Source: Eubacteriales bacterium
GTDB lineage: Bacteria > Bacillota > Clostridia > Oscillospirales > CAG-272
Length of the DNA stretch: 64,000 nucleotides
Assembly (NCBI GenBank): GCA_045542075.1
Contig: JAZQKI010000023.1
Span: forward strand, 18,727 to 82,726
Direction: 5' to 3'
Positions 18,720-64,000 of the stretch are shown here, one piece after another (positions within the stretch are counted from its first letter, which is position 1; each line of letters begins with the position of its first letter). The notes beneath the pieces were generated by a model. That model worked only from the letters and a program-made list of their open reading frames with translations, did no database searches and was not told where the DNA came from. The position numbers were made by a program, and so were the translations under genes.

Positions 18720-19022
18720 TTATTCGAAATCTTCCTCTGCCTCTACTGCCGCGCTCTGTTTTTCGCGTCTGACTATAACGTAGTCACCCTCGTGAATTCT
18801 TCTTATAGCAGTCTTTACCGCCTTGTCGTCGCGAAGCTCCTTGTCGATCATGCTGTTGGTGGGATGATCGCTGTCCTTACCGTTTGCATTTGCGTGCTCC
18901 GCGTCCTCGCGCTGCTTTACGTATTCGTCCGTTACTATGCGCGCGCACTTTGCCGTTGCAAGCGAAAGCTCATATCTGTTGTACTGTCCCTTTGTAAGCT
19001 CGTTTATCGTTGGATAAAGCAT
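18720..19022 (-). CDS. rpoZ: RNA polymerase omega subunit
   Basis: MLYPTI..L....NRY.L..ATAK.AR.I and K.VKTAI..I; conserved synteny. Confidence 0.85.
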   Translation of the reverse strand: MLYPTINELTKGQYNRYELSLATAKCARIVTDEYVKQREDAEHANANGKDSDHPTNSMIDKELRDDKAVKTAIRRIHEGDYVIVRREKQSAAVEAEEDFE

Positions 19023-62666: not shown

Positions 62667-62897
62667 ATACCCGAAAAAATTTCGGTATTTATGCGTTTGT
62701 TTTTGTAAAAATATTTTGAAAAATACTCAATAATGTTGACAAAGCAGTCCCAAAAGAGTTATAATAAAATGATATAATGCGAAAGTAGGATAATTTTTTG
62801 AAATTTGAGTATTTTTTGCATATTCTTCAGGTTTTGCGACGGGCAGATGGCGTCGCAAAGCGCTCACACAACTAAAAATCAAGAATGGAGAAAAGGC

Positions 62898-63941
62898 ATG
62901 AAGAAGATCTACATTATCTTGCAAAACGGTCAGGTTTTTGAGGGAAGATCATTCGGCGCAGAGGGCCGTGTGGTCGGTGAAATTATTTTCACAACTTCAA
63001 TGGTAGGATATCTCGAGGCTCTTACAGACCCCGTATATCACGGACAAATACTCGTCCAGACCTTCCCCCTCATCGGTAATTACGGAGTTATCGAACAAGA
63101 CCTCCAGACAGACAAAATTCACGCGTCGGCATACGTGGTAAGAGAATGGGCAAATAACCCCTCAAATTACCGTTGCGGCGGAGATATTGACTCATGGCTC
63201 AAGAAAAACGGTGTCGTAGGTATCTGCGACGTCGACACAAGAGCGCTGACTGAGGCAATTCGTGACTATGGCGTTATGAACGCGATCATCACGGACACCC
63301 TCCCCGACCCCATAGTTCCCGACGAGGTGATCACCTATGCGGTTAAAAACTACGTCTCGGCAGTCACCTGCACCGAGAAAAAGCTTTATCCGGCTGAAAA
63401 CGCAAGATATAACGTAGCTATTTATGATTTCGGCGTGACGGCAAGCGTTATAGACAGTCTCACAAGCCGTGGCTGCAACGTCACCGTCTTCCCTGCAAGC
63501 ACTCCCGCTTCAGATATACTTTGCGGCGGATTTGACGGAGTCGTGCTTTCAAACGGCCCCTGCGGAGATCCAAAGGACAACGTCGAAATAATCCTTGAAA
63601 TAAGAAAGCTGCTCGGTAGCCTTCCCATGTTCGGCATGGGACTTGGCCATCAGCTCGCTGCTCGCGCGGCAGGAGCAGGCACGACTAAATTGAAGTTTGG
63701 TCACCACGGTGCAAATCAACCCGTTAAAAACACCGAAACGGGTAAGGTCGAGATAACCAACCAGGCGCATCTCTACACCGTCAACCCCGCCCGTCTCCCC
63801 GCCTCCGCAACTCTCACGGAAATAAACGTCCTTGACGGCTCGGTCGAGGCGATAGAATACAGAGAACAAAAGGCATTTACGGTACAATATTATCCGAGCG
63901 ATATTCACTTTGATAAGTTTGTAAAGCTTATGGAAAAGTAA
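62898..63941 (+). CDS. carA: Carbamoyl-phosphate synthase small subunit, catalytic triad degenerate
   Basis: GE..F.TSMVGY.E.LTDP.Y.GQI, DTRALT, DFG, LSNGP, KFGHHGANQPVK. It has FGMGLGHQ and VQYYPS in place of FGICLGHQ and VQYHPE. Confidence 0.92.
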   Translation: MKKIYIILQNGQVFEGRSFGAEGRVVGEIIFTTSMVGYLEALTDPVYHGQILVQTFPLIGNYGVIEQDLQTDKIHASAYVVREWANNPSNYRCGGDIDSWLKKNGVVGICDVDTRALTEAIRDYGVMNAIITDTLPDPIVPDEVITYAVKNYVSAVTCTEKKLYPAENARYNVAIYDFGVTASVIDSLTSRGCNVTVFPASTPASDILCGGFDGVVLSNGPCGDPKDNVEIILEIRKLLGSLPMFGMGLGHQLAARAAGAGTTKLKFGHHGANQPVKNTETGKVEITNQAHLYTVNPARLPASATLTEINVLDGSVEAIEYREQKAFTVQYYPSDIHFDKFVKLMEK

Positions 63942-64000
63942 TTTCGCAAAACAAATTTTTTCAACTTTTAATTAAACCACATTAAAACAAAGCAATTACG

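Follow-up and report, generated by a model that had tools for sequence, protein, structure and literature searches.

We analyzed a window of 64,000 nt from a Eubacteriales bacterium (Bacillota; Clostridia; Oscillospirales; CAG-272), corresponding to positions 18,727–82,726 of the forward strand of contig JAZQKI010000023.1 (assembly GCA_045542075.1), and followed up a gene encoding a CarA-like small carbamoyl phosphate synthetase (CPS) subunit that lacks all three residues of the glutaminase catalytic triad. The assembly of this genome (G000) totals 1.64 Mb, divided over 48 contigs, with a completeness of 96.65%; nucleotide positions below are those of the window unless stated otherwise, and all features lie on its plus strand. 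The gene (62898..63941) encodes a protein of 347 aa (P0001), which profile searches identified as a full-length CarA homologue with both CarA domains. The CPSase small-chain domain, which contacts CarB (PF00988, residues 6–131, 62913..63290), was matched over the entire profile (positions 1–126 of 126) with 169.5 bits against a cut-off of 27 (E 3.5e-50), and the class I glutamine amidotransferase-like domain (PF00117, GATase, residues 175–333, 63420..63896), whose fold is kept while its catalytic residues are gone, was matched with 106.8 bits (E 1.4e-30). The scores for both NCBIfam carA models were above their cut-offs as well (NF009475, 363.2 against 221; TIGR01368, 354.9 against 307.35).

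Phmmer alignments with the E. coli CarA structures 1t36_B and 1c30_B place Gly248 (codon GGA, 63639..63641), within the motif FGMGLGHQ, at the position of the nucleophile Cys269, an assignment shared by the MAFFT alignment with relatives. Tyr332-Pro333-Ser334 (63891..63899) is found where intact CarA has His-Pro-Glu, with Tyr332 under His353 and Ser334 under Glu355. Between Pro333 and Ser334, directly after the ‘YP’, the MAFFT alignment shows a deletion of 8 residues, corresponding approximately to Glu355–Asp362 of E. coli, and the Cys-His-Glu triad is therefore represented by Gly, Tyr and a position that is either Ser or deleted. An earlier note on this DNA had pointed to the altered nucleophile elbow, to VQYYPS in place of VQYHPE with a shortened loop behind it, and to the change of SQNHG to NQAHL, and all three observations hold in the alignments. 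The NQAHL motif (63759..63773) retains Gln310 and His312 of E. coli CarA, while Asn311 is replaced by Ala and Gly313 by Leu. A further residue of the glutamine site, Ser47, is replaced by Val46 (63033..63035), and the protein carries a one-residue insertion, Cys222 (63561..63563, in SNGPCGDP), located just 5′ of the Gly that matches the oxyanion-hole residue Gly241 of E. coli. Despite these replacements, the AlphaFold2 model of the protein has a predicted local distance difference test score (pLDDT) of 95.9, and Foldseek aligned it to E. coli CarA (1m6v_B) with a TM score of 0.96 and to human CPS1 with 0.90. The nucleophile is thus replaced within a retained amidotransferase-like domain, as in enzymes of the CPS I type. 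Judged from the alignments, the loss of glutaminase catalysis is close to certain.

Upstream of the gene, a terminator-like hairpin found by a consensus scan (62671..62685) follows the preceding gene and sets it apart from the transcription unit of the carA-like gene. The promoter that the earlier note had assigned to the gene corresponds to a sigma-70-type promoter-like site, TTGACA-18-TATAAT (62736..62765), which agrees with the consensus at 12 of 12 hexamer positions; this is a match to the consensus and not evidence of function, so only the sequence part of that claim stands. A ribosome-binding site, GGAG (62887..62890), can be read from the sequence 7 nt 5′ of the ATG. When leader and gene were searched against Rfam, only chance matches below threshold were returned, with neither a PyrR site nor a riboswitch found. 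In one contig assembled from sequencing run X1 (record 2, depth 4), the 108 nt that separate the promoter region from the start codon (62789–62898) are exchanged for 117 other letters, which suggests that this gene is preceded by another leader in some strain.

Sequencing errors at the critical codons and a decaying paralogue beside an intact carA had been named in the earlier note as the findings that would undo its interpretation, and we found neither. We compared the assembly over positions 62700–64000 with contigs built from four sequencing runs, which came from four studies (X1 record 1, 62700–63889; X2 record 10, 63630–63846; X5 records 17 and 18, 63534–63684 and 63789–63938), and none differed at the Gly or Tyr-Pro-Ser codons, although one of the four runs may be the assembly’s own source. 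Close by, a minor contig showed the only variant, 63890 T>C, which does not alter the amino acid. A sequencing error was therefore rejected, the more so as triad-less forms are carried by seven further species of this genus. Searches of the 96.65%-complete genome with the protein query and with PF00988 gave a single match each and no second carA-like gene, and with this the idea of a decaying paralogue next to an intact copy was dismissed. The gene also does not behave like a pseudogene. Its reading frame is open, and the ratio of nonsynonymous to synonymous substitution rates (dN/dS; NG86, pairs of the triad-less clade with dS 0.37–1.1) is 0.06–0.13 for the amidotransferase-like domain and 0.04–0.12 for the N-terminal domain, in line with the earlier statement that the CarB-binding domain is well preserved; for comparison, carB yielded 0.03–0.04. 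Stops and frameshifts are absent from the genus's 7 further triad-less copies of full length and from the 31-member clade to which the protein belongs.

The carB gene is intact and adjoins the carA-like gene as a separate open reading frame (ORF) 3′ of it on the same strand, after a gap of about 140–180 nt and outside the window (G000:C23:82847-86905; L026:248-4306; window-equivalent start ~64121). Its product, 1352 aa according to the ORF and profile matches, reaches 1413.5 bits against a 599-bit cut-off for CarB, and the ammonia-gate residues Cys232, Ala251 and Ala314 as well as Arg265 are conserved in comparison with 1bxr_A. The ammonia gate of E. coli CPS is named in PMC8674909. A model of the complex between CarB residues 1–560 and the CarA-like protein scored 0.91, against 0.00 for the best of 3 controls; among reference cases, 58 of 80 solved complexes attained this mark, as did 2 of 110 pairs of mismatched proteins. 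At least 98% of the contacts were common to three runs with partner pLDDT values of at least 92, and the modelled interface residues lie mostly in the N-terminal domain (residues 31–122). As E. coli CarAB has already been solved, this result shows likeness rather than proof of binding.

The reading frame of CarB continues at its C-terminus into a DapF-like domain, which is complete (PF01678 twice; TIGR00652, 248 bits), a fusion that the earlier note had not covered. The first catalytic Cys of this domain is replaced by Ala, the second Cys is kept, and its dN/dS is 0.07–0.09. It is the single DapF-family match in G000, which also encodes a meso-diaminopimelate (meso-DAP) dehydrogenase (454 bits), so that an epimerase is not needed. 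The fusion was present in 8 of 8 full-length relatives of one set and in 11 of 11 of another, the first Cys always being gone (Ala, Gly or Ser), and it occurs together with intact as well as with dead CarA (here used for CarA without the catalytic residues). For this reason, we rejected the possibility that the fused domain has replaced the glutaminase: it accompanies an intact CarA in G030 and at loci L047–L051. No description of a CarB-DapF fusion was found in the literature searched, which covers few subscription journals.

The genome encodes pyrB, pyrI, pyrE and pyrF. Neither argF, with pyrB being the single gene of the ornithine/aspartate carbamoyltransferase (OTCase/ATCase) family, nor a carbamate kinase was found in G000. 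CarAB is thus the sole source of carbamoyl phosphate found and, given the pyr genes, its product should feed pyrimidine synthesis. Glutamate dehydrogenase (GDH) is present. The transporter Amt (PF00909) and the CTP synthase PyrG (TIGR00337) were both found in 14 of 14 control genomes and neither was found in G000, where a completeness of 96.65% leaves their absence unproven. The same completeness applies to the amidotransferases, of which we detected two with a PF00117 domain, the CarA-like protein and HisH, and none of the GuaA type. In HisH, the Cys and the His-Pro-Glu motif are intact, and the genome has two glutamine synthetases; the triad has therefore been lost from CarA specifically.

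The distribution of triad-less CarA, a survey of which the earlier note had called for, showed that the trait is widespread. Among 24 other genomes of the same genus (G001–G024), 9 had a carA-like match at E <= 1e-10. Seven of these matches are full-length and all seven lack both the Cys and the His, with Gly, Tyr and a deletion in G002, G006, G010 and G020, Ser, Leu or Thr, and Glu in two others, and Gly, Arg and Asp in one; each genome with a dead copy had a single carA match. The remaining two matches are a fragment and an intact CarA in G021 that is 43% identical to the window’s and may be foreign or a contamination. The CPS pathway seems to have been lost often in this genus. In a wider search, Cys and His are both present in 80 of the best 120 homologues, with at least one of them missing from the other 40, and about 90 of the best 150 representatives at 50% identity lack the Cys, mostly with Gly instead, in a list that is biased to look-alikes of the dead query. 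The named relatives are metagenome-assembled genomes of Eubacteriales, Acutalibacteraceae, Oscillospiraceae and Clostridia, some of them from rumen or caecum. In a FastTree phylogeny of 283 sequences, 136 of which lack the Cys, there are at least 24 changes of state, and the 31-member clade that contains the query consists purely of Cys-less sequences. A separate triad-less form, with a loop deletion of equal size and without the Cys222 insertion, is seen in a group of Acutalibacteraceae.

For an unbiased view, we used 151 evenly drawn genomes of the order, each at least 90% complete and including G000, in which the CarA was chosen per locus by BLAST guidance and then typed for Cys and His. 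A carA match was found in 111 genomes, and typing covered 134 matches. The second match of G122, a fragment of 135 aa, could not be assigned to a type, an N-terminal piece of CarA from the end of a G052 contig was left out, and G129, whose contig-end fragment has Cys and His intact, was counted among the genomes with an intact copy. One intact CarA was found in 70 genomes, two intact copies in 5, an intact and a dead copy in 12, one dead copy in 18 and two dead copies in 6. Hence, 24 of the 111 genomes have only Cys/His-less CarA, or 22–24 given the fragments in G122 and G052. An argF gene is present in 20 of these 24 and adjoins the dead carA in several (G031, G066, G086, G117, G072), so that elsewhere the dead form also serves arginine synthesis. 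Among the other genomes of the sample, 40 of 151 had no carA-like match, yet many of them have argF; in G026, G037, G040 and G049, for example, OTCase matches exceed the cut-off while a CarA match was not found. As a separate observation, genus g2 contains a divergent CarA paralogue family that is 26–30% identical to the query, in G025, G110, G140, G169 and G155 (loci L025, L179, L180, L182 and L183, respectively). It has Gly at the Cys, Leu at the His and Cys at the Glu position (LGxGLGF...FLPCSD), and its neighbour is an intact CarA in two genomes and a further dead one in three.

Comparing the two classes within the order sample, Ser47, Lys202, Asn240, Cys269, Gln273, Asn294 and His353 (E. 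coli numbering) are conserved to at least 90% in 91 intact sequences and much less in 38 dead ones, Ser47 being kept in 91 of 91 intact CarAs. Gly241, Gln310, His312 and many residues of the N-terminal domain are conserved in both. The His353 position is occupied by Y, D, I, Q, A, V and others in dead CarAs. Between His353 and the conserved Phe that follows it, all 91 intact sequences have a stretch of 14 residues, while it is cut to 6–11 residues in 10 of 40 dead ones from several lineages, which indicates that the length of this loop is constrained only while the glutaminase works. An insertion at the Cys222 site was found in 1 of 42 Cys/His-less and in 0 of 92 intact sequences; the copy described here combines it with the loop deletion, the carB::DapF-like fusion and a genome in which argF was not found. 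Amt (PF00909) was found in none of the 24 genomes with only dead copies, compared with 50 of 87 with an intact copy, and the contrast had the same direction in families f2, f5, f8, f18 and f21, in which both CarA states occur and Amt varies. In families f1, f17, f19 and f24, Amt was not found in any genome with a carA match. The contrast fits lineages that never needed to scavenge ammonia.

Against this background of a lost triad in a sole copy under purifying selection, a preserved fold, an intact CarB gate, the presence of carbamoyl phosphate consumers and the recurrence of the trait across the order, we consider it likely that the pseudo-glutaminase CarA and the intact CarB constitute the cell’s only CPS, that this enzyme is fed by ammonia and that CarA acts in it as a scaffold. 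The CarA-like protein would keep its fold and its CarB-binding surface and would be unable to hydrolyse glutamine. CarB would pair with it, and the resulting CPS would take free ammonia as nitrogen donor, with the carbamoyl phosphate entering pyrimidine synthesis through the products of pyrBI, pyrE and pyrF in G000. CarA would have been retained since CarB needs a structural partner. With the deletion, the vacated active site has probably become an opening through which ammonia from outside can enter: the missing stretch contains the equivalent of E. coli Gly359, in a loop that we take to close the glutaminase end of the ammonia tunnel there, a connection that the earlier note had not made. 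The earlier note had arrived at an ammonia-dependent CPS that keeps CarA as a structural subunit; the genomic checks support this view, and from them we infer the lack of glutaminase activity, the use of ammonia as substrate and the binding of CarA to CarB in the cell.

Several points weigh against this interpretation. The CPS of E. coli has a poor affinity for ammonia, and a working enzyme of the proposed type would therefore depend on elevated ammonia levels inside the cell or on a CarB that has adapted. That the loop deletion provides an inlet is a proposal that draws on work on the E. coli enzyme and not on a structure of this protein, and the high score of the modelled complex may reflect the solved E. 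coli CarAB already being familiar to the predictor. A second carA could still lie in an assembly gap, considering the 48 contigs and 96.65% completeness, and the failure to find pyrG puts the completeness of the pyrimidine pathway in doubt. Furthermore, 15 of the 24 genus genomes (68–95% complete) had no carA-like match at E <= 1e-10, showing that close kin can dispense with the pathway, which some lineages may keep under weak selection. The association with Amt, finally, is a lead rather than a test, as related genomes overstate the independence of the counts.

Four other explanations were considered, which in our estimate together take up about a quarter of the probability. In the first, the dead domain would be a sensor that binds glutamine or another metabolite and tunes CarB allosterically, with ammonia still being the substrate. 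In its favour, the purifying selection extends over the whole amidotransferase-like domain rather than the interface alone, and E. coli CarA with the substitution C269S (PDB 1c30/1c3o) reportedly still binds glutamine. Here, on the other hand, the pocket residues are replaced and the loop covering them is deleted, and the pocket positions are variable across dead CarAs, making a sensor unlikely in our view.

The second explanation assumes an altered chemistry, in which Cys222 would serve as a relocated nucleophile together with His272 or His312, or the pocket would accept another amide donor. It gains some appeal from the position of the SNGPCGDP insertion next to an oxyanion-hole residue, from the presence of Cys at this site in most of the close clade, and from the conservation of GHQ, Gln310 and His312 to at least 90% in dead and intact CarAs. 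Yet P0010/L005 has Ser as the insertion, and the residue following it varies between Gly and Val, while the insertion is missing from the other 41 Cys/His-less sequences of the order and from the dead clade of Acutalibacteraceae. The glutamine-site residues Ser47, Asn311 and Gly313 are replaced, and the wide variation of the residue at the His353 position among dead CarAs is as expected without a catalytic role. Judging from the sequence, we therefore regard a relocated or changed chemistry as quite improbable.

Similarly little credence is given to the third explanation, that the protein is a functionless relic on its way to loss, with CarB working alone. In its favour, E. coli CarB by itself can make carbamoyl phosphate from ammonia, CarA diverges faster than CarB within this genus (84% against 94% identity to G010; 58–60% against 81% to G005), and 15 of 24 genus members have no carA match. 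This contrasts with the dN/dS of 0.06–0.13 maintained over dS values of 0.37–1.1, with the lack of stops and frameshifts in the genus copies and the 31-member clade, and with the perfect promoter consensus, the ribosome-binding site, the N-terminal domain matching its whole profile and the confident fold prediction. The fourth, an assembly or sequencing artefact or an intact carA hidden in a gap of the 48-contig draft, is hardly credible, since the contigs of four studies agree and seven genus species as well as 24 of 111 order genomes have only dead copies.

Compared with known systems, the CPS described here resembles the type II enzyme of E. coli (1jdb, 1bxr, 1c30, 1m6v) in its two-gene layout, in both CarA domains and their fold, in the domain set of CarB and its gate and in the modelled interface. 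It differs from it by the lack of Cys269, His353 and Glu355, by the replacement of Ser47, Asn311 and Gly313, by the deletion of the loop at approximately Glu355–Asp362, by the insertion before Gly241, and by the additional C-terminal DapF-like domain of CarB. With human CPS1 (5dot, 5dou) it shares a retained but inactive amidotransferase-like domain of similar fold in which the catalytic Cys is replaced. However, human CPS1 is a single polypeptide of ~1500 residues that keeps the His and the Glu, has Ser at the Cys position, needs N-acetylglutamate and belongs to the urea cycle, whereas here carA and carB are separate ORFs, the whole triad is gone, Gly occupies the Cys position and the product would go to pyrimidines. 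According to PMC4655335, all CPS types except CPS1 use glutamine, and human CPS1 cannot because Ser (Ser294) replaces the same catalytic Cys, so that it must take ammonia from solution. Bacterial CPS is listed under type II in PMC6022934, and a fish CPS III is described in PMC7657897 as having converged on ammonia use.

The 8 residues deleted here span the Gly359 stretch that is disturbed in the perforated-tunnel mutants of E. coli CPS, which, in the work ascribed to Kim and Raushel in 2004, are reportedly laboratory point mutants leaking glutamine-derived ammonia outwards. In contrast, the deletion described here is natural and is read as letting external ammonia in. To our knowledge, textbooks ascribe a CPS run on ammonia to the vertebrate liver enzyme only. 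No description of a bacterial triad-less CarA was found in the literature searched, with its limited share of subscription journals, and such proteins are apparently not yet in print. What the present analysis adds is their order-wide frequency, the contrasts in loop length and in Amt, the finding of pyr genes without a detected argF, and the presence of two retired modules in one CPS.

A broader and more speculative proposal, which we regard as doubtful, is that a substantial part of the gut and rumen Clostridia of the Oscillospirales type have a CPS remodelled for ammonia, with a single working enzyme between two retired ones. The emptied pocket of CarA would be a gated inlet for external ammonia, opened further here by the loop deletion, and the one-cysteine DapF-like domain of CarB a new regulatory or ligand-sensing module. 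This trait might have evolved many times, within our sample only in lineages without Amt, and it could be a marker of permanently high ammonia.

If an ammonia-fed CPS with a scaffold CarA is indeed what these genes encode, about one fifth of the sampled carA-bearing genomes of the order would make the precursors of pyrimidines, and mostly also of arginine, directly from ammonia, which would change metabolic models of nitrogen flow in gut and rumen. The automatic name ‘glutamine-hydrolyzing carbamoyl-phosphate synthase small subunit’, as given to P0010, would then be wrong for triad-less proteins. The Oscillospirales would moreover offer a natural and repeatedly evolved parallel to the vertebrate transition from CPS III to CPS I, and a set of naturally occurring variants with which the entry of ammonia into the CPS tunnel, and the reason for CarB's need of CarA, could be studied.

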